NCBI GenBank assembly: GCA_004297215.1
Contig: SCUM01000001.1
Span: 481,181 to 545,180 of the forward strand
Source of the DNA: Patescibacteria group bacterium
GTDB taxonomy: Bacteria; Patescibacteriota; Patescibacteriia; UBA9934; GWF2-40-263
Length of the DNA: 64,000 bases
Direction of reading: 5' to 3'
Part shown: positions 1 to 33,200 of the stretch, piece by piece
Layout: every line of letters starts with the position of its first letter
Numbering within the stretch: position 1 is the stretch's first letter
The notes under the pieces: model-generated
The model's database searches: none
Told to the model about the DNA's origin: nothing
The model's input: only the letters and a program-made list of their open reading frames with translations
Program-made: the position numbers and the translations under genes

Positions 1-512
1 AAACTTGAAGGACCAAAACTTGAAGGACCAAAGGGCTTGAAAAAGGACGAAATTTGAAGAGAAAGGCGTTTATACGACGACTTTGCCGATGATGGCACCG
101 AAAATACGAACCAGTTCCCCTGCCTCGGCGGTCAGCCGTCCTCGTTCCTTCGCAAGCACGACACTGGAACCCACATCAAGGATTCCAAGCCAATACCCGC
201 TTTCACGCGATTCCTTCTTTGCAATCTTCAAACGAAGAACGAAATCTTTCCGACTTACCCCTTCGTTCCCTTCCAAATAATTCGCCCCAATGGACCCGGA
301 CGACCGAATGAGTTGTTTGCCATCTTCCTTGTTCCAAGGATTCATCGGCAGCCGCTTCACCAACTGACGGACGTCCATGGCGAACTCAGATGTCCGCCGC
401 TCAAGATCATAAATCCTCATAACTTCTTTCTATGCTATTTCAATCCTTCGCCCTTTCACCCTTCGTCCTTTCACGTTTCCATTGGTCCTTCAAGTTTTGG
501 TTCTTCAAGTTT
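1..512. mobile_element. Low-GC MITE-like element with terminal inverted repeats, carrying a four-helix-bundle gene as cargo. Left arm 1-66 is possibly truncated by the window edge; right arm 421-512.
   Basis: 1-30 aaacttgaaggaccaaaacttgaaggacc is the reverse complement of 483-512 ggtccttcaagttttggttcttcaagtttt. Both arms match the gene-less copies at 19901-20033 and 27920-28065. The arms are AT-rich within a roughly 65% GC context. Confidence 0.6.
70..420 (-). CDS. Four-helix-bundle protein (TIGR02436 family, formerly '23S rRNA intervening-sequence protein'; Avd-like).
   Basis: 116 aa. MRIYDLERRTSEFAMDVRQLVKRLP...GYWLGILDVG matches the conserved pattern of this family. Lower GC than its neighbours. 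Confidence 0.8.
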   Translation of the reverse strand: MRIYDLERRTSEFAMDVRQLVKRLPMNPWNKEDGKQLIRSSGSIGANYLEGNEGVSRKDFVLRLKIAKKESRESGYWLGILDVGSSVVLAKERGRLTAEAGELVRIFGAIIGKVVV

Positions 513-4344: not shown

Positions 4345-4389
4345 ACGTGGACATCTTGCCGGAGAAGGGGCAGGTTGTCCAAGCCCGAA

Positions 4390-5229
4390 TCCAACACCAG
4401 GTGTTGGATTCGAAGATCGCACCCGTCCAACACCCGGTGTTGGATATTTGACTTTTCAAGGTTTTTCATATAATCTTAACTCAATCTCATTCATGACCCT
4501 CCGGTTTTCGGGGGGTTTTGCTTTTCCAACACCGGGTGTTGGACCAAACTTATGCGCGAGACGTCATTTATGAACGGAGAGTACTATCATGTCTATAACC
4601 GTGGTGTGGACAAGCGCCTCATTTTCCAGGCTGAAAGAGACCGACTGCGCTTCATGAAAGGAATCGTGGCCTTCAATGATGTCGGACGCCATGCTACCAA
4701 GTCGCTCCAACGCATCAGCCCTGTGGTACCGAGCAAAACGCCCTACGTAGAAGTGGTAGCCTACACGCTGCTACCAAACCATTATCATTTTCTTCTTCGC
4801 CAGGTCGCCGATCGTGGCGTCCCTGAATTCATGCGCCGTGTCGGGACTGGGTTCACGAAATACTTCAACCTTCGCTATCAGCGAAATGGCCGGCTATTCC
4901 AATCACCATTCCAGGCAAAACATGTGATGGATGATGGCTACTTGCTCCATCTCTCTCGGTACATTCATCTCAACGTCCTCGATCTTTCATTCCCTGAATG
5001 GCGGGATGCTGGGATTCAAGATTGGCCAGCTGCCATACGCTCGATGCGAGGCTACCTTTGGTCAAGTGCCAAGGATTATCTGGAAGGAACCAAAAGATTC
5101 TATATTCGACCTGATTCCATCCTCGAACAGTTCAAGCTCCCGGACGCATATCCCCGCTTCCTGAAAGACTGGGTCCAACACCCGGTGTTGGACCCGTAGA
5201 TGGTGCCCGTCCAACACCCGGTGTTGGAC
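4390..5229 (+). mobile_element. REP-RAYT unit: a RAYT gene flanked by 3 upstream and 2 downstream REP palindromes.
   Basis: Copies of TCCAACACC(A/C)GGTGTTGGA at 4390-4408, 4425-4444, 4525-4543, 5173-5193 and 5209-5229. The RAYT CDS is about 48% GC versus about 65% in the flanks. Confidence 0.8.
4552..5199 (+). CDS. REP-associated tyrosine transposase (RAYT; IS200/IS605 TnpA-like HUH-Y1 enzyme).
   Basis: HUH motif NHYHFLL and a downstream conserved Tyr region (YIHLN). 215 aa. An alternative start is 4570 (MNGEYYHVYNRG). The C-terminus reads into REP4. Confidence 0.8.
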   Translation: MRETSFMNGEYYHVYNRGVDKRLIFQAERDRLRFMKGIVAFNDVGRHATKSLQRISPVVPSKTPYVEVVAYTLLPNHYHFLLRQVADRGVPEFMRRVGTGFTKYFNLRYQRNGRLFQSPFQAKHVMDDGYLLHLSRYIHLNVLDLSFPEWRDAGIQDWPAAIRSMRGYLWSSAKDYLEGTKRFYIRPDSILEQFKLPDAYPRFLKDWVQHPVLDP

Positions 5230-16337: not shown

Positions 16338-17267
16338 TTATACCACATCAAGCGCCCGAGCGAGCGAAACCCATTCATCCACAGCGAGCGTCTCGGCTCG
16401 AGCCTTCGGATCGAGCCCGGCCTTCGACAGCATTTCCTTCACTTGTCCGGTCGTCCCATACCCTGCCGCGACCAGATTCCCGTGCAATTGCTTGCGCGGA
16501 TGGGAGAAACCGGCTTTCGCGAGGCGTATCACCTTCTCCCTCGGCGCGACCCCCTCATGCTCCCCCTTTCCAAGGGGGAGATAGCTCGTTTCCGCTACCC
16601 TCCCCTTGGAAAGGGGAGGCATGGCGGGGTCTGTGCGCAGGTCGAGCCTCACCACCGCCGAATCCACCTTCGGAATCGGCCGGAACGCCCCGCGGGGCAC
16701 GTTCGTCACCTTTCGGACGTCGGCGTACAGCTGACAGACGACGGACAAGAGCCCCATGTCTCCCGGCTTGGCCGTGATGCGGTCGGCCACCTCCTTCTGG
16801 ACCATGAGCACCATTCGCGACGGCCGCGGCTCGTGTGCCAAAAACCGCTCGAGGATGGGCGAGGTGATGTGGTAGGGGATGTTGGCGACGAGCTTGAAAG
16901 CTCCACCCACGACCCCCTCATGCTCCCCCTTTCCAAGGGGGAGATAGCTCGCTTCCGCTACCCTCCCCTTGGAAAGGGGAGGCATGGTGGGGTCTGTGCG
17001 CAGGTCGAACTTGAGAGCGTCGCCTTCCACGAGCGTGATGCGGTCACCGAACCGTTCACGGAGTCCCGGAATCAGGTCGTGATCCGCTTCGATGGCGGTC
17101 ACCTTGGCGCCGGCGTCGACAAGGGCCTGCGTGAGCACGCCGGTGCCGGGGCCGATTTCGAGCACGGCCTCGCCCAGGACGATCCCGGCAGCCGAAACGA
17201 TCTTCCGCAGGACGGAGGCGTCCTGGAGGAAGTTCTGTCCGAATGATTTCTTGGCGCGAGGAAGCAT
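16338..17267 (-). CDS. rsmA: 16S rRNA (adenine1518/1519-N6)-dimethyltransferase with two in-frame 32-aa insertions.
   Basis: KsgA motifs QNFL, VLEIGPGTG, NIPYHITSPI and SHPRKQL. Two extra segments DLRTDP(T/A)MPPLSKGRVAE(A/T)SYLPLGKGEHEGV have no counterpart in canonical KsgA. Confidence 0.85.
   Translation of the reverse strand: MLPRAKKSFGQNFLQDASVLRKIVSAAGIVLGEAVLEIGPGTGVLTQALVDAGAKVTAIEADHDLIPGLRERFGDRITLVEGDALKFDLRTDPTMPPLSKGRVAEASYLPLGKGEHEGVVGGAFKLVANIPYHITSPILERFLAHEPRPSRMVLMVQKEVADRITAKPGDMGLLSVVCQLYADVRKVTNVPRGAFRPIPKVDSAVVRLDLRTDPAMPPLSKGRVAETSYLPLGKGEHEGVAPREKVIRLAKAGFSHPRKQLHGNLVAAGYGTTGQVKEMLSKAGLDPKARAETLAVDEWVSLARALDVV
16548..16645. repeat. 98-bp double-hairpin palindromic element, copy A, inside the ksgA coding region.
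   Basis: gaccccctcatgcTCCCCCTTTCCAAGGGGGAGatagctcgtttccgctaCCCTCCCCTTGGAAAGGGGAGGcatggcggggtctgtgcgcaggtcga. About 97% identical to copy B. Confidence 0.8.
16911..17008. repeat. 98-bp double-hairpin palindromic element, copy B, inside the ksgA coding region (direct repeat of copy A).
   Basis: Same sequence as copy A with 3-4 substitutions. The unique flanks differ. The two copies are 363 bp apart. Confidence 0.8.
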
Positions 17268-17340: not shown

Positions 17341-18282
17341 TCATGCTTGAGATTTCAGATGCGTCCTCATCCATGCCACCGTCTTCGCGAGCCCCTCCTC
17401 GAGGCCGACGGCCGGTTCCCATCCGAGGACCCGTTTGGCGAGCGACGCGTCGAGCACGCTCCGGCGTTCCTCGCCGCGGACCTCCGGGCCCGAACCGATC
17501 TTCCCGCGATAACCCGTTTCGCGCCGCAGCAGCCGGACGATCCCGTTCACCGACGTCTCGCGGCCGGTCGCGATGTTGAATACCCCGTGCGCGGACGGCT
17601 TCATCGCGAGAAGGTTCGCCCTGACGACGTCATCGACGTACACGAAATCCCGGCTCTGCTTGCCGTCGCCGTACACGACCGGCGTCTTCCCGGCGAGCAT
17701 CTGGCGCGCGAACACGCTCACCACCCCCGCTTCGCCTCGCGCGCCTTGCCTGGGACCATAGACGTTGGCGTACCGCAGCGCCACGTACGGCAACCCATGC
17801 GTATGGCACACGCTGTGCAGGTAGAGCTCGAACGCGAGCTTGGAAACCCCGTAGGGGGAACGCGGCAGGCTCGGGACGTTCTCGGGGGTCGGGATGACCT
17901 TGAGCCCGTGATAGATGGCGCCGCCCGAAGAGGAGAAGACGAGCCTCTTCGCCTTGGCGCGCACGCACCCCTCCAGCACCCGCAACCCGCCGATCACGTT
18001 CACGCGCGCATCGCGGATCGGCTCGCGCACCGACACCCGCACGTCGATCTGCGCGGCCATGTGGAACACGACGTCGGGCTTGAGCTTCTCGATGAGCGCG
18101 GAAACCTTCGGGCTCTCGACGGAGAGCCTGAAGAAGGTCGCGTTCGGGTTCAGGTTGTCCCGCCGCCCGAGGGAGAGGTCGTCGATGACGTACGTCTTGA
18201 TGCGGCGTCGGATGAGGGCGTCCGAGAGGTGCGACCCGATGCACCCGGCGCCTCCGGTGACGAGCGCGCGTTTGTATCTCAT
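17341..18282 (-). CDS. NAD-dependent epimerase/dehydratase (UDP-glucose 4-epimerase / UDP-sugar epimerase family).
   Basis: Rossmann motif VTGGAGCIGSHL at the N-terminus, YxxxK catalytic region, and extended SDR architecture. Start at MRYKRALVTGG. Confidence 0.8.
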   Translation of the reverse strand: MRYKRALVTGGAGCIGSHLSDALIRRRIKTYVIDDLSLGRRDNLNPNATFFRLSVESPKVSALIEKLKPDVVFHMAAQIDVRVSVREPIRDARVNVIGGLRVLEGCVRAKAKRLVFSSSGGAIYHGLKVIPTPENVPSLPRSPYGVSKLAFELYLHSVCHTHGLPYVALRYANVYGPRQGARGEAGVVSVFARQMLAGKTPVVYGDGKQSRDFVYVDDVVRANLLAMKPSAHGVFNIATGRETSVNGIVRLLRRETGYRGKIGSGPEVRGEERRSVLDASLAKRVLGWEPAVGLEEGLAKTVAWMRTHLKSQA

Positions 18283-18342
18283 AGTTCGTAGTGCGTAGGT
18301 GGTAGTGCGTAGGTGGTAGGACGAAATCCTACGCACTACGTA
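18283..18342. promoter_or_regulatory. Intercistronic hairpin / tandem repeat between prfB and the epimerase gene.
   Basis: gtagtgcgtaggtg occurs twice in tandem and is followed by its inverted copy cctacgcactac, giving a perfect 12-bp stem. Confidence 0.35.
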
Positions 18343-19462
18343 CTACCCCCTACCCCCTTTTAATTCCAGCTGCAAATAGGCTTCCATGAACGGCTCAAGC
18401 TCGCCGTTTAGCACTCCCTCGGCGTCGCTCGTCTCGTACCCGGTGCGGTGGTCCTTCACCAGCTTGTACGGATGCAGCACGTAGGAACGGATCTGGTTGC
18501 CCCATTCCGCGCTCTGGTAGTCGCCGCGCAGCCCCGCCTCCTTGGCCCGGCGCTCTTCCTCCTGCCTGGCCACGAGCTTTCCCATCAGGATCTTCATGGC
18601 GGTCTCGCGGTTCTGCTTCTGGCTGCGCTCGTTCTGGCACTGCACCGTGATGCCGGTCGGGACGTGCACGATGCGCACCGCGGAGTACGTGGTGTTCACG
18701 CTCTGGCCGCCCTTCCCTCCCGACATGAACGTGTCGATGCGCAGGTCCTTCTCGTCGATCTTGATGTCGGGCAGCTCGTCGAGCTCCGGCACGGCCTCGA
18801 CGAGCGCGAAGGTGGTGTGGCGCATCTTCTCGGCGTCGAACGGGGAAATGCGCACGAGGCGGTGCACGCCGTGCTCGGACTTGAGGTAGCCGTACGCGTG
18901 CCGGCCCGTGATGCGGAAGGTGATGCTCTTGAAGCCGACGTCGCCCCGGCTCTCGTCGAGCACGTCCACCTCGAAGCCCTTGGCTTCGGCGAAACGCATG
19001 TACATGCGGAACAGCATCGCGCTCCAATCGTTCGCCTCGGTGCCGCCGGAGCCGGCATGGATGGACAGGATGGCGTTGCTGCCGTCGTAGGGCCCGGAGA
19101 ACAGCACGGCGAACTCCATCTTGGCGAACCGCTCCTCGAACCCCTTGAGTGACGCGGCGATCTCGTCGCGCATCCCCCCCTGCCCTGAGCTCGTCGAAGG
19201 GTCCGCGTCGGCGAGCTCCGCGACGTCCTTCAGGTCGGAAATCTCCTTCAAGAAGGACTCCCAGGATCCCACTTCGCCCCGCAGGTCCGCCGCGCGCTTG
19301 CCCACCTTGCGCGCGTGCTCCTGGTCGCTCCAAAAATCCGCCGATTCCATCTCGGCTTCGAGCGCCTTCACCTCCGTCTTGACCGTATCGAGGTCAAAGC
19401 AACCCCCACGTGCGCAGGACGCGCTCGCGGAGGGCTTCGATCTGGCGGATGAGGTCTTTCAT
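18343..19462 (-). CDS. prfB: Peptide chain release factor 2, made by a programmed +1 frameshift.
   Basis: ORF1 MKDLIRQIEALRERVLRTWGLL ends at the classic shift site CTT TGA C (plus-strand 19393-19399), preceded by the internal SD-like GGGGG. The +1 frame continues DLDTVKTEVKALEAEMES… and includes the GGQ motif (SGGKGGQSVNTT). Confidence 0.85.
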
Positions 19463-19550
19463 ATCGAGAGGTCGTAAAGGTGGTAAGGGTCGTAAAGGTG
19501 TTGGAATCTTTTTTAAAAAATTTCCTTCACCTTTATCACCTTTCAAACCT

Positions 19551-19883
19551 TTACAACTTTATCGTCTTCGCGAACTTCCCCAGCACGGGCATCTCCCACT
19601 GCTTCCCGTTGTACGCGTTCACCATCCCGAGGATCATCAGGCAGAACAGGGCGAGGGAACCGAAGAGCCACACGACCGGTCCGATGGGCGGCACCGCGAT
19701 GCCGGCCCACAGGAGGATGAGGGCGATGAGCAGCACGAGCCCTTGCTTGCCATGGAACCGGGCGAACGGACTGTCCTTCGCGAGGAGCAACGGGACGAGG
19801 CACAGGATGCCGAGATAGCCGATGGCGGCAATGGCGCGGTTCTCCTGCGCGTCGTCGATGGGTTGTTTGGCTGAGTCTGACAC
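19551..19883 (-). CDS. Small membrane protein (DUF4870-like).
   Basis: Two or three hydrophobic helices (AAIGYLGILCLVPLLLA, LVLLIALILLWAGIAVPPIGPVVWLFGSLALFCLMILG). The ORF-track N-terminus (MKPFRFSF…) is the translated TIR element, so the true start is probably the GTG near 19883. Confidence 0.5.
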   Translation of the reverse strand: MSDSAKQPIDDAQENRAIAAIGYLGILCLVPLLLAKDSPFARFHGKQGLVLLIALILLWAGIAVPPIGPVVWLFGSLALFCLMILGMVNAYNGKQWEMPVLGKFAKTIKL

Positions 19884-19900
19884 AGCGGATGAAGCATAAG

Positions 19901-20033
19901 GTAAAACATGAAATCGTGAAAGGATGTTGAAAGACATGTGAAGGAATGAAAAACGAAACGGTTTCACCCGTTTCGCCTTTCACACGTTTTCACGTGTCCG
20001 TTCAAGATTTCAAGTTTTCACGTTTCAAGTTTT
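19901..20033. repeat. MITE-like low-GC TIR element, gene-less copy B.
   Basis: Right arm ccgttcaagatttcaagttttcacgtttcaagtttt, central hairpin cgaaacggtttcacccgtttcg, and a degenerate left arm. Lies between the groEL stop and the downstream gene. Confidence 0.6.
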
Positions 20034-20036
20034 CTC

Positions 20037-21737
<1,701 letters not shown>

Positions 21738-24482: not shown

Positions 24483-25422
24483 AGGTCCGGCAAAGGGCCA
24501 TCCATCGGTCGCGGTATTCCGCACGGCGGTCGTTTTCGTGGAACTTGAGCATCTCGTCGTTCACCACCACGCGGGAGTCGCGGTTCATGAGGGTGCGCAG
24601 GGAGTGCGGGAGGCGGCGGAGTTGGATCCAGCGGGCCAGACGCTCGACATGTCCACCACGTCCAACACCCGGTGTTGGACGTGTCGTTTCCTTAGGAAAA
24701 CCAGGGTTCTCAAGATCTCGATTTTCAAAATCGCCAGGTTTTTTACAAAAACTGGAATTCCCAACACCAGGTGTTGGGTCCTGTGAACGGACATCTCCGT
24801 ACACCGTCCGCAGCGACCGGATCCACACCTCCAGATACGGATCCCCTCCCGGCAAAGCGAGCGTCTCGAGGGCGGGCGCGGCCGTGGACGCGAAGAAGCT
24901 GAAGCAGAACGGGTCGCGCGCGCCGTCTTCGGGCCTCTGGCGCAGGATCGCGAATGGCGTGACGCACATGAGCCGCGCGGTCCAGGTAAGCCCCGGCATC
25001 GTGCGTACGAACAGGTCGATGTCGCTCTCCGGCCGCGTATGCATGAACGCGAGCGTGTTCGCGGCCGCGACGGCGCGCACGCCCGGGACACGACGAAGGA
25101 ATCGGACGGCGCGGCGAAGGGCACGCATCTTGCGCAGCGCGTCACGACGACGCGCGTGGCGCGTACGCGCGAGCGCCACGGCGTCAGTGCCCGGAAGCGC
25201 ATGGAAGCCGTCCTTAGACGGGTATCCCCCGCCCCGTAGCGCGGCATCGACCTCGTCGAGGGACGGCTTCTCGCCCGTGACGAACAACCATTTCCAGGTC
25301 TCGAACGCCGTGGGGGCGTAGTCAAAAAGCGAAAACCAAGCGAGGGTCCGGAGAATGGCCTTGTGGAGCGCTTCGTCCATAAACGCAAAGGATGCCCGTC
25401 TGGGGCATCCTACATGCTTCAT
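24466..25422 (-). CDS. Hypothetical protein (possible minimal nucleotidyltransferase-like motif) that contains an in-frame REP doublet.
   Basis: A 318-aa ORF reads through two REP palindromes (translated PTPGVG…PTPGVG). TRPESDIDLFV resembles an NTase hG[GS]…DxD motif. Overlaps the ligase start by about 17 nt. Confidence 0.45.
   Translation of the reverse strand: MKHVGCPRRASFAFMDEALHKAILRTLAWFSLFDYAPTAFETWKWLFVTGEKPSLDEVDAALRGGGYPSKDGFHALPGTDAVALARTRHARRRDALRKMRALRRAVRFLRRVPGVRAVAAANTLAFMHTRPESDIDLFVRTMPGLTWTARLMCVTPFAILRQRPEDGARDPFCFSFFASTAAPALETLALPGGDPYLEVWIRSLRTVYGDVRSQDPTPGVGNSSFCKKPGDFENRDLENPGFPKETTRPTPGVGRGGHVERLARWIQLRRLPHSLRTLMNRDSRVVVNDEMLKFHENDRRAEYRDRWMALCRTYAYDA
24660..24778. 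repeat. REP doublet with an AT-rich spacer (BIME-like), located inside an ORF.
   Basis: gtccaacacccggtgttggac (24660-24680) and cccaacaccaggtgttggg (24760-24778) flank an 80-bp low-GC spacer. Confidence 0.75.
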
Positions 25423-27556: not shown

Positions 27557-27916
27557 TCACCCTGCGCCCGGACTGTCAATCGACGGAAAATGGGTGATGG
27601 CCCCGCTCGGGTCGATCGCGATCACGTCGAGCCGCCACGGCCTGGCCTCCAAGGCCTTCGCCGAGACGTACGCCTCAGCGCTCAAGCGCATGGTCAGGAA
27701 CTTCTTGCGGGTGATAGCTTCCTCCGGCGCGCCGAACCTCGCGCTGCGCCTGGTCTTCACTTCCACGAACACGAGCTCCGGCCCGTCCTCGCACACGAGG
27801 TCGATCTCCCCGAACGGCGTGCGCGCCTGGCGCGCGACCATGGCGAGGCCCTTTGCGCGCAGGAACCGTTCCGCCGCACGCTCCCCCGCGTTGCCCAGCT
27901 GCCTTCGAGGATCCAT
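27557..27916 (-). CDS. yraN: YraN-family (UPF0102) endonuclease-like protein.
   Basis: RQLGNAGERAAERFLRAKG…GEIDLVCEDGPELVFVEVKTR is typical of UPF0102. Start at MDPRRQ; the upstream ORF-track residues are the translated TIR element. Confidence 0.75.
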   Translation of the reverse strand: MDPRRQLGNAGERAAERFLRAKGLAMVARQARTPFGEIDLVCEDGPELVFVEVKTRRSARFGAPEEAITRKKFLTMRLSAEAYVSAKALEARPWRLDVIAIDPSGAITHFPSIDSPGAG

Positions 27917-27919
27917 AGG

Positions 27920-28065
27920 CGAAAACTTGAAACATGAAAACTTGAAATCTTGAAAGGACACGTGAAAACGTTTGAAGAACGAAATGGCTAAAACCGTTTC
28001 GTCCTTGTTCCATTCGTCCTTTCACGTCTCCATTGGTACTTCAAGTTTTCACGTTTCAAGTTTTT
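27920..28065. repeat. MITE-like low-GC TIR element, complete gene-less copy C (146 bp).
   Basis: Left arm gaaaacttgaaacatgaaaacttgaaatcttgaaagg, right arm cttcaagttttcacgtttcaagttttt, and central hairpin cgaaatggctaaaaccgtttcg. Confidence 0.65.
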
Positions 28066-28067
28066 AT

Positions 28068-30261: not shown

Positions 30262-33200
30262 TCATCTATAGACAGCGGCTGATCCCTGGTTTGCATTGCC
30301 TCCGACATCGTCGAGGTCAGCACCCACGATAAGTGTCTCCGCCGATTCTGATACCGAAACGCCAAAGTGATCGATCGTGGCGCCGTCAGCGGCGCTGAAC
30401 TTCTGGGCCTGATTCCAGGTCGATCCGGCACGGACGAATACGTACGCGGAACCCTGGTCGACGTTCGCGCCGACGGTATCTCGCTGGGCGCCAACGGCGA
30501 CGACGTCGCCCGAGATGCTCACGGAAATCCCGAAGTCAGCGTTCGTGGAGCCATCCGAGGCAACGAGCTTCTGCTGCTCGGTCCAAACAGAACCGCTGCG
30601 GACGAACACGTAGGCGCTACCCTGGTTCAGGTTGCTTCCGACGTCGTCTCGGTTCGCGCCGACGACGACCGAATTTCCGGAGATGCCGACGGAGATGCCG
30701 AAGACGTCGTTCCCGGCCGCGTCGCTCGCGACGAGCTTCTGCTGCTGATTCCAGGTCGAGCCGACGCGGAGGAAGACGTACGCCGCGCCCGGCTGCCCGC
30801 GGCCGGCGATGTCCACCCCGTCGGCGCCCGCGACGACGGAGTCACCATCGATCGCGACGGACCGGCCGAGGAAGTCCGAGGCGACGCCGTCGCTCGCGAT
30901 CAGCATCTGCTGCTGCGTCCACACCCCGCCGCTGCGCACGAACACGTACGCCGCGCCCTGCGCCGACCTGCCGGATACGGCATGGAAGAAGGACCCGACC
31001 ACGATCGTGTTGCCAGAGATCGCCACGGCGCTGCCGAACTGATCGTCCGCGGCTCCGTCGGTTGCCACGAGCTTCTGTTGCTGCGTCCACACCCCGCCGC
31101 TGCGCACGAATACGTAGGCGCTTCCTTGTCCCGTGTTGCCGTTGACGGCGTCGAAGAAGGCGCCGACGACGGCGGTGTCCCCGGAGATCGACACGGCTTG
31201 CCCAAACTGCTCGCCCGAGCCGGGCGACGTGGCACCGTCTCCGGCGACGAGCTGCTGCTGCAGGGTCCACTGCGCCCCGTTGCGGATGAAGACGGACGCG
31301 GTGCCCTGGTTCGAGCTGCCGCCGACGTCGTCGCCGGGCGCACCGACGATCGCCGTTTCACCCGAGACGCTCACCGAATGCCCGAAGGCGTCGCTTGCGG
31401 CGCCGTCCGCGGCCGTGAAGGCCTGCTGAAGTCCGGTCGGGAAGATCGGCGCCTGGACACAGCCACCTGGCGGTGAGGTCGCGGCCCCGCTCGCCCAGAA
31501 GGCGCTCCCGTCGAAGGACACCGCCAAGCCGCCCGTCCAGTCGCAGCTCACGTCGAAGCCGGTCCACCAGAAGTCGGCGGTCTGGGCGAGGTCGGCCTCG
31601 GCGACCATGTAGTGGGAGGCCGACAACACGTCGCTTGGCTCGCAGCGACGGAAGTTGAATCGCCAGGGAAGGCCGTTCGTACAGCTGGCGCACTCGTTCG
31701 GGAACGGCGCGTCTCCGACAGGCAGGTCGGGGAGCAGGTACTCGACCCAGCCGTCTCCGTCGCTGTCGTCCACCGGGATCTCCTGCCCGCTCTCTGCGAT
31801 CCCTTGCGCCCATCCGATGACGCATAGGTCGCTTCCCGCGACGAGGTTCGAGAGCGCCGTGCCGTCGTGGAGCTGAAACGCGCTCGGGTCGAGGAGCACC
31901 ACGCGGCTGTCGAGCGAATCGAGGCGCAATGGGGGAAGCGGCAGGCACGTGCCCGCCAGGCATTCCTCGTTGTACGCGCATGAGCCGCATGAGCCCCCGC
32001 ACCCGTCGGAACCGCACGTGCCCGCACACTGCGGCGTGCATGTGTCGACCATGAAGGAGCAAGACGATCCAAGCCCTGGCGACTCCGTCGGGTCATCGAC
32101 GAGCGTGATCGGTCGCTCGTCGCTGTCGAGCACCACGAGCTCCGCGGCGCAGGCCGAAACGTCGGCCGGCGTCGGACAGAACCAGGCGTCGCTCGACGCG
32201 ACGGTCGCTCGAAGGTCGAAGCGCAAACCTTCGCCCTGAGGCGGCGTGAGCAGGCATGCGTCCTGCGACCCGCTCGTCGAGCACATCGAGACCCACGGAC
32301 CGACGGGCTGTCCGGTGGCGAGGTCGAAACGCTGCGCGAGCAGCTCGAGGCCCGTGACGGAGGGCCCGAGGCAGCGGTAGATGGCGTAGACGTCTCCGCC
32401 GGCGATGTCGCAGTAGTCGAGGTTCGCCCAGCAGTCCGGATCCTGGCAGTCGATCCACCCGTCGCCGTCGTCGTCGACCGCGTCGAAGCAGGATTCCGCG
32501 CAGACGCCCTCGTCCACGAGCGCGTCGCAGTCGTTGTCGATCGTGTCGCAGCGCTCCAGGGCGCCCGGGTTGACCAGCGGATCGCCGTCCCCGCAGTCGC
32601 CGGCGGCGCACGCCGCGCCGTCGAGCCGCGTCATCGTGAGGTCGCAGTACCCATCCCCGTCGCTGTCGCAGAACTCGTCGACGTTCCCGTCGCAGTCGTT
32701 GTCCTGGCCGTCGCACACCTCGCTCGACTCGATGCACGGGCCGACGCAGCCCGGCTCGCCGACGAACAAGCAGCAGCGACGCTGCGCGGGGTGGCAGCCG
32801 ACGTCGCCGCAGTACGTGAGCTGAAAGTCGTTCCACTGGCACTGGCCGTCGAAGCAGCCGCCGGGCTCGTACACCTTGAGCTGGGTTTCGCCGTAGCACT
32901 CGGAGGGAGGGATGGTGTCGCAGGCGTCGGGCTCCCCGCAGGGGTCGCCGCAGTTGTCACTGCCGCAGATGGCGTTGCGGGCGGCGCAGTCGGACACGCA
33001 GTCGGGAACGCACACGGCGGTCGTAGAGCTGGTATTCTCGCAGTGCTCGCCGAAGCCACACGGTGGCGGAAAGATGTAGAGCCCTTCCCCGTTCTCGTCG
33101 AGTACCCAAGGGTGAACGGTGTCGCCTGGGTTCGGCGCCCAGCACTGCACGACGTCGGGCGTCGTGCAGATGGGGACACCAGCGCAGTCAGGATCGGCGC

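Follow-up and report, generated by a model that had tools for sequence, protein, structure and literature searches.

A 64-kb stretch of a Patescibacteria genome (the window, by which we mean the whole stretch analysed) carries a palindromic element, e1, that is best described as a cassette of the type known from 23S rRNA intervening sequences (IVS), lying in an mRNA spacer. On our reading, to which we assign a probability of roughly 0.55, e1 belongs to a widespread class of rRNA-IVS-type cassettes and two further palindromes in the window, e2 and e3, are its gene-less copies, all of which would be co-transcribed with their surroundings while the stem loops the insert out. Cassettes of this type consist of an S23p/IVP gene within a few bases of inverted arrays of ~7–8-nt purine-rich repeats. 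What is new here is the occurrence of IVS-type four-helix-bundle (4HB) cassettes outside rRNA, together with gene-less derivatives, in a Patescibacteria genome, and a regularity of build that holds across phyla. Our searches of the literature turned up no account of such cassettes outside rRNA.

A four-helix-bundle gene enclosed between inverted arms

The 4HB gene is a minus-strand ORF (70–420; 116 aa; S23p/23S-rRNA-IVS protein family, NCBI TAK04001.1) enclosed between the two arms of e1. The stop-side arm (1–66) is pyrimidine-rich on the sense strand of the gene and pairs with positions 455–512 of the start-side arm (421–513), which forms the terminal stem of the RNA fold; the arms are 81% complementary over 58 nt (1–58 versus 455–512) and pair into a long stem. 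In the predicted RNA fold of e1 (-205.9 kcal/mol, z -7.7) the ORF lies inside the loop. On the sense strand the start-side arm is purine-rich and built of 7–8-nt units with a period of 15 (AAAACTTGAAGAACC AAAACTTGAAGGACC ...), and its autocorrelation peaks at lags 7–8 and 15. The true left terminus lies 2 nt before the start of the window, where a 2.4-kb Logan contig from the same locus (L001) reads GAAAACTTGAAGG before breaking off inside the other arm; the right terminus falls at ~513.

Elements of the e1–e3 type have a GC content below that of the genome. The position of e1 is outside rRNA, as the window holds no rRNA and the flanks are protein-coding, with a gene for an M23 peptidase on one side and an unannotated gene on the other. 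The gap that separates the e1 terminus from the stop codon of the peptidase gene (555) holds, on the minus strand, an intrinsic-terminator-like hairpin with ATTTTCTT (522–546), which counts against simple read-through transcription at this site.

The 116-aa protein belongs, as the earlier note had proposed, to family TIGR02436 (66.1 bits in the HMM search against a cut-off of 24), and it also matches PF05635 (46.1 bits, cut-off 33.8). An AlphaFold2 model of the monomer shows four helices at a pLDDT of 94.8, and Foldseek matched it to 2RLD (E 2e-4, TM 0.75–0.81) and 2GSC (TM 0.75–0.80). The kinship with Avd that had likewise been suggested is borne out in the fold, at a likeness (4DWL, TM 0.71–0.74) weaker than that to the S23-family structures, but not in the sequence, for which the match to Avd is not significant. 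The PDB entry of 2RLD, the closest relative with a solved structure, contains five chains, and 2GSC, a Xanthomonas homologue, has been described as a homopentamer (PMC4990558). By analogy with Avd, the 4HB protein may be a nucleic-acid-binding homopentamer. The 4HB genes are under strong purifying selection, with dN/dS values of 0.05–0.08 where measurable.

Gene-less copies at two further loci

Two non-coding palindromes in the window are related to the arms of e1. The first, e2 (~19905–20033), fills the spacer between the groEL stop codon (20037–20039) and the GTG start codon of a DUF4870 gene (19895), and the second, e3 (27920–28066), lies between the stop codon of a 423-aa gene without a Pfam match (28068) and the yraN ATG (27916). 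Local alignment of e2 with e3 over ~145 nt scores 162 in inverted and 134 in direct orientation and includes a 100-nt ungapped stretch that is 84% complementary; both also align to the e1 arms. The motif TTCAAGTTTTN5TTCAAGTTT has five exact occurrences in the window against an expectation of 0. Both copies are predicted to fold into stable RNA hairpins (e2, -50 kcal/mol, z -6.2; e3, -67 kcal/mol, z -9.4). Judged by these alignments, e1–e3 are clearly homologous copies at unrelated loci, and the copies sit exactly in spacers between same-strand genes.

Much of what the earlier note had described at these loci agrees with our results. The arm complementarity, the cross-alignments and the long hairpin folds confirm three related palindromic loci, and the picture of a low-GC repeated element with one gene-containing and two gene-less copies is supported, as are the neighbours given for e2 and e3 and their position in spacers between same-strand genes. 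Inverted repeats of ~35 bp had been proposed; the arms are indeed shared, but the complementarity extends much further (58 nt in e1). A central hairpin had been placed at all three loci and is found in e2 and e3 only (CGAAACGG/CCGTTTCG), not in e1. The spurious N-terminal extensions reported for two ORFs are real: those called at 19551–19967 and 27557–27961 run into e2 and e3, respectively, and the GTG at 19895 and the ATG at 27916 are the true starts of the DUF4870 gene and yraN.

Searches for known RNA signals returned little. Terminator and promoter scans made no call inside e1–e3, and Rfam gave no match at gathering thresholds. At relaxed thresholds, a search of positions 1–600 and 18200–20100, which cover e1, e2 and two further hairpins described below (e4 and e5) but not e3, yielded nothing but a sub-threshold hit for e4 that resembles a microRNA precursor. 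On the sense strand, inspection by eye shows UUUUUCAUU after the inner hairpin of e2.

Palindromes gained in the source genome

The window encodes a GroEL identical to TAK04012.1. Candidatus Uhrbacteria are the nearest relatives, their GroEL proteins being 74–76% identical. A contig from Uhrbacteria RIFCSPHIGHO2_01_FULL_63_20 (L203) is syntenic with the window (yraN, nusA, yidC ... groES, groEL, DUF4870, prfB, epimerase, ksgA ... giant protein), and its 21.6 kb contain no such hairpins. An ordinary terminator within a 56-nt spacer takes the place of e2 in the relative.

The same comparison brings out two additional hairpins in the window. The first, e4 (19466–19561; fold z -6.7), is made of GTAAAGGTG units and lies between the DUF4870 stop codon and the prfB ATG, a junction that reads TAAgggtATG in the relative, with a spacer of 4 nt. 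The GC-rich e5 (18282–18358; z -5.0), with GGGGGTA/GTAGTGCGTAGG units, lies between the prfB stop codon and the epimerase ATG, where the relative reads TAAtATG and the spacer is 1 nt. These minimal spacers indicate that the palindromes were gained in the source genome. In build, e4 and e5 resemble e1–e3, a purine-rich repeat arm being followed by its complement; in sequence they are unrelated. The hairpins of the window start 0–6 nt past a stop codon, or include it, and stop 5–13 nt short of the start codon that follows, where a ribosome-binding site is not obvious.

Other repeats and signals were seen in the same region. The ksgA/rsmA gene (16338–17267, minus strand) contains an in-frame, GC-rich palindrome of 99 nt (33 codons) twice, at 16547–16645 and 16910–17008, in copies 98% identical to each other (translation DLRTDP.MPPLSKGRVAE.SYLPLGKGEHEGV; RNA fold z -7.7). 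The Uhrbacteria orthologue lacks the first copy, leaving a 28-aa gap, and the palindromes resemble Rickettsia palindromic elements, which insert in frame into genes. The prfB gene has a classical CTTTGAC +1 programmed frameshift site (~19395–19405, minus strand; also ~12075 in L203), which accounts for the stop codon in its single-frame translation. At 30545–31396, a 168-nt unit recurs five times in tandem at 61–74% identity, probably as a repeated protein domain.

Gene and arms as one inherited unit

Metagenome contigs scanned with an alignment of the 116-aa protein and 22 homologues yielded 80 loci at 51–60% identity. At these loci, the 220 nt upstream of the ORF were compared with the 220 nt downstream for inverted repeats, with neighbouring genes of the same loci as the control. 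The median inverted-repeat score was 18.5 at 4HB loci and 8.5 at neighbouring genes (Mann–Whitney p = 7e-12), and 53 of 71 4HB loci, from unrelated metagenomes, exceeded the 95th percentile of the control. The arms at homologous loci are inverted arrays of ~7-nt purine-rich or A-rich units (for example AAATCCG AAATTCG AAATACG AAAC, or AAATCCT AAATCCT), with a period-7 autocorrelation of 0.38–0.42 against 0.26 in controls. They lie close to the gene, at a median distance of 6 nt from arm to ATG; the repeat runs within them, mostly of 3–4 units, commonly stop 7–9 nt short of the ATG (median 13 nt).

Arm similarity follows protein identity across loci (Mantel rho 0.27, a value reached in 0 of 500 permutations). 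Some close cassettes occupy orthologous contexts with flanks 75–83% identical, which indicates vertical inheritance, while others up to 88% identical share no common flanks, which indicates relocation. Two genomes of the candidate phyla radiation (CPR), from Wolfebacteria (L204) and Gottesmanbacteria (L205), have cassettes of the same build as e1, and a divergent subfamily (L112) has inverted arrays of 8-nt repeats, GAAACTGG/GAAACTTG upstream and TTTCAAGT downstream. Taken together, the bracketing across loci, the co-divergence of the arms and the purifying selection show that, in many bacterial phyla, gene and arms form a single heritable unit.

Of 20 loci sampled, none is inside rRNA. At 50% identity the subfamily falls into 11,148 clusters for E ≤ 1e-3 and 3,938 for E ≤ 1e-10, and no relatives were found in the viral contigs searched. 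In 62 of 64 loci the gene upstream points in the same direction, a modest bias over the baseline of 86% (p 0.004), and the orientation of the downstream neighbour does not differ from the baseline. In two organisms (L137 and L141), a 4HB cassette with AATCCTAAA-type arms sits between apparent leuC and leuD genes, named by eye from the translated flanks, and the upstream flanks of the two are 77% identical.

The pairing between arms was also analysed for signs of selection on RNA. Mismatches of the G-U and A-C kinds are about equally frequent (106 versus 110). This lack of strand asymmetry gives no sign that selection acts on the sense RNA in particular, and upkeep of the arms as DNA would fit just as well. 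Arms of one class pair as well between loci as within a locus, so that pairing alone is no proof of locus-specific co-evolution, and as the arms fall into few shared classes, locus-specific covariation is not demonstrable from them.

Searching genome contigs for the arm motif gave many chance hits in AT-rich genomes, and among the matches listed none extended beyond the motif itself. These listed matches included L112 and several acidobacterial TTCAAGTTT palindromes, which have the opposite polarity, with the T-rich arm first, and are probably unrelated. In Acidobacteriota, intergenic TTTCAAG/CTTGAAA palindromes with the T-rich arm first were seen on three contigs (L003, ~560–700; L105; L100); the flank in L003 is MreB-like by eye, and L105 has apparently the same mreB–mreC spacer. 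Separately, a 96-aa GIY-YIG gene with 25-nt inverted repeats around it occupies the dnaK/dnaJ spacer of the Gottesmanbacteria MAG (JACQHE010000019.1, L205, 1111–1433).

Mechanism and alternative explanations

We propose that the cassette is transcribed within the surrounding transcript, and that pairing of the arms would loop the insert out and so reunite the flanking stop and start codons. A looped-out insert would be tolerable in a compact genome, which would explain why only palindromic inserts persist. By analogy with 23S rRNA IVS, the stem would likely be a substrate of RNase III.

How such elements come to lie at several loci admits other explanations. As in REPINs, a RAYT/IS200-type Y1 (HUH) transposase could move hairpin doublets in the form of single-stranded DNA. 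Such transposases leave no target-site duplication, and both the long-hairpin doublet build of e2 and e3 and the lack of duplications around them are in line with this, as is the missing G-U strand bias, which is compatible with a hairpin acting at the DNA level. A RAYT-like Y1 gene is even present in the window (4552–5199); it is flanked, however, by REP hairpins of its own (GTCCAACACCCGGTGTTGGAC; 4381–5229, with further REPs at 24630–24681 and 24761–24792) that are unrelated to e1–e3, and it scores below both curated cut-offs. The arms of e1–e3 are unlike these REPs and have, by eye, no obvious GTAG-type head, and the 4HB cassettes of the Wolfebacteria and Gottesmanbacteria genomes have no Y1 gene as a neighbour, so that we consider a REPIN-like origin unlikely. 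Still less credence goes to a classical MITE, that is, a non-autonomous element that depends on a DDE-type transposase acting in trans and has picked up the 4HB gene as a passenger, although it would account for the terminal inverted repeats, the small size, the GC below that of the genome and the number of copies (three in 64 kb, of which two are non-coding). The earlier note had read e1 in this way and pointed to target-site duplications as evidence to look for. The flanks differ at all three elements (CTATG/AAGAA at e1, AAGGT/CTCCT at e2, TAGGC/TATTC at e3), that is, there are no duplications, and no transposase with the termini AAAACTTGAA...TTCAAGTTTT occurs within the window. Random capture of cargo does not predict a gene bracketed at 53 of 71 homologous loci, with arms that hug its ATG at a fixed spacing and co-diverge with its protein. 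The description as a MITE carrying cargo is thus only partly right, and a MITE in the strict sense is highly improbable; the elements did not spread by cut-and-paste transposition of the kind that duplicates its target site.

A further possibility is that the hairpins are regulatory elements of the host (terminators, attenuators, mRNA stabilisers or processing sites) that arose where they now stand and have stayed similar through gene conversion, the 4HB gene being there by chance. The location of e2 at the exact place of an ordinary terminator in L203 is what such an origin would lead one to expect, as are the UUUUUCAUU after its inner hairpin on the sense strand, the A-tract ... U-tract ends of all elements, and the hairpins e4 and e5, whose like build and unrelated sequence suggest a local origin. 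The scans for terminators and promoters flagged nothing in e2 and e3, however, the homology of e1–e3 at unrelated loci is clear, and gene and arms remain linked across phyla; we regard growth in place as distinctly unlikely. The arms may instead be putative binding arrays, of RNA or DNA, with 3–5 units per arm for a 4HB homopentamer, serving self-regulation or the copying of the cassette, much as Avd aids the DGR reverse transcriptase. Arm classes are conserved across loci and co-vary with the protein phylogeny, and the arrays vary little in size and stand in a fixed register to the ATG, unlike the open-ended lengths that slippage would give, while the five chains of 2RLD and the homopentamer described for 2GSC (PMC4990558) offer a matching multiplicity. 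Co-inheritance explains the co-variation equally well, though, the unit count is only loosely five, and a polymerase partner is not seen in the window; we hold such arrays to be very unlikely as the explanation. More far-reaching, and in our view unlikely, is the idea that 4HB genes with inverted arms form a class of self-propagating cassettes without a conventional transposase, in which rRNA IVS would be copies that landed in rRNA, the pentameric protein would recognise the arrays and be needed for copying or retention, and e2 and e3 would be non-autonomous riders. We retain, at the odds stated at the outset, the reading of e1 as an IVS-type cassette in an mRNA spacer with e2 and e3 as its gene-less copies.

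Implications

Where IVS come from, how they spread and what their conserved ORF does have been open questions since the early 1990s. Old proposals see IVS as the remnant of a transposition or as a mobile element with an ORF that aids its mobility (PMC4990558). If a 4HB gene with inverted arms is a general cassette, then the rRNA IVS would be a special case of a far larger class of elements, to which the ~3,900 clusters at E ≤ 1e-10 (~11,000 at E ≤ 1e-3), the location of 20 of 20 sampled loci outside rRNA and the purifying selection all point, and the IVS question would become testable in ordinary operons.

There are practical consequences as well. Low-GC hairpins of this kind produce false N-terminal extensions in gene calls, and they may add to assembly breaks, given that L001 ends inside an arm, though the palindrome itself could explain this. 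Finally, the elements show a streamlined Patescibacteria contig of 0.84 Mb with many palindromic insertions that are absent from a relative.

Comparison with known systems

Correia elements of Neisseria are cut by RNase III. Like MITEs and Correia-type elements, e1–e3 are small palindromic intergenic repeats in several copies, and the Correia type is co-transcribed with genes. Unlike both, e1–e3 have no target-site duplication and, within the window, no cognate transposase, and e1 carries a conserved gene that belongs with its arms. With REPIN/RAYT systems, e2 and e3 share the build of hairpin doublets without target-site duplications, while the sequence families differ. Short direct repeats before start codons are known from Beggiatoaceae, Cyanobacteria and Bacteroidetes, where 2–6 heptamers (TAACTGA) end a few bases before start codons; these repeats and the cyanobacterial STRR occur across distant phyla with no known mechanism (PMC4679880). 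The TAACTGA-type arrays are direct, have no inverted partner and are not known to be linked to 4HB genes, whereas the e1 arms are inverted. With the Avd protein of DGRs, the 4HB protein has the four-helix-bundle fold in common, at the TM scores and without the sequence significance reported above. A crude motif scan found no reverse-transcriptase candidate in the 64 kb, the only Y[x]DD in a long ORF being that of the epimerase, and on present evidence the window gives no sign of a DGR.

The closest parallels are the 23S rRNA IVS themselves. The ORF-less IVS of Salmonella, Yersinia and Campylobacter (~100–150 nt) are paralleled by e2 and e3, which are hairpins of 130–150 nt without an ORF and relate to the ORF-bearing version as short IVS relate to long ones. 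Those IVS lie in rRNA, whereas e2 and e3 lie in mRNA spacers, and the likeness drawn here is one of build. The ORF-containing IVS of Coxiella burnetii, Leptospira, Brucella and Haemophilus match e1 in several respects, having an S23p ORF in the loop of a terminal-repeat stem, tandem short purine-rich repeats directly before the ATG (7-nt units there; 7–8-nt units with a period of 15 in e1), a GC content below that of the host, no known transposase and a sporadic distribution (PMC4990558). The terminal stem of the Coxiella IVS, 28 bp long and cleaved by RNase III, carries the S23p ORF in its loop, 3–4 tandem heptamers (GACAGAT) stand directly before the ATG, and the GC content is below that of the genome (PMC4990558). 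The differences concern location and state: the ORF-containing IVS occupy helix 9, 25 or 45 of 23S rRNA, whereas e1 lies between protein-coding genes and none of the 20 related loci sampled is found in rRNA, and where the Coxiella ORF is decaying, e1 has an intact ORF whose relatives evolve under purifying selection.
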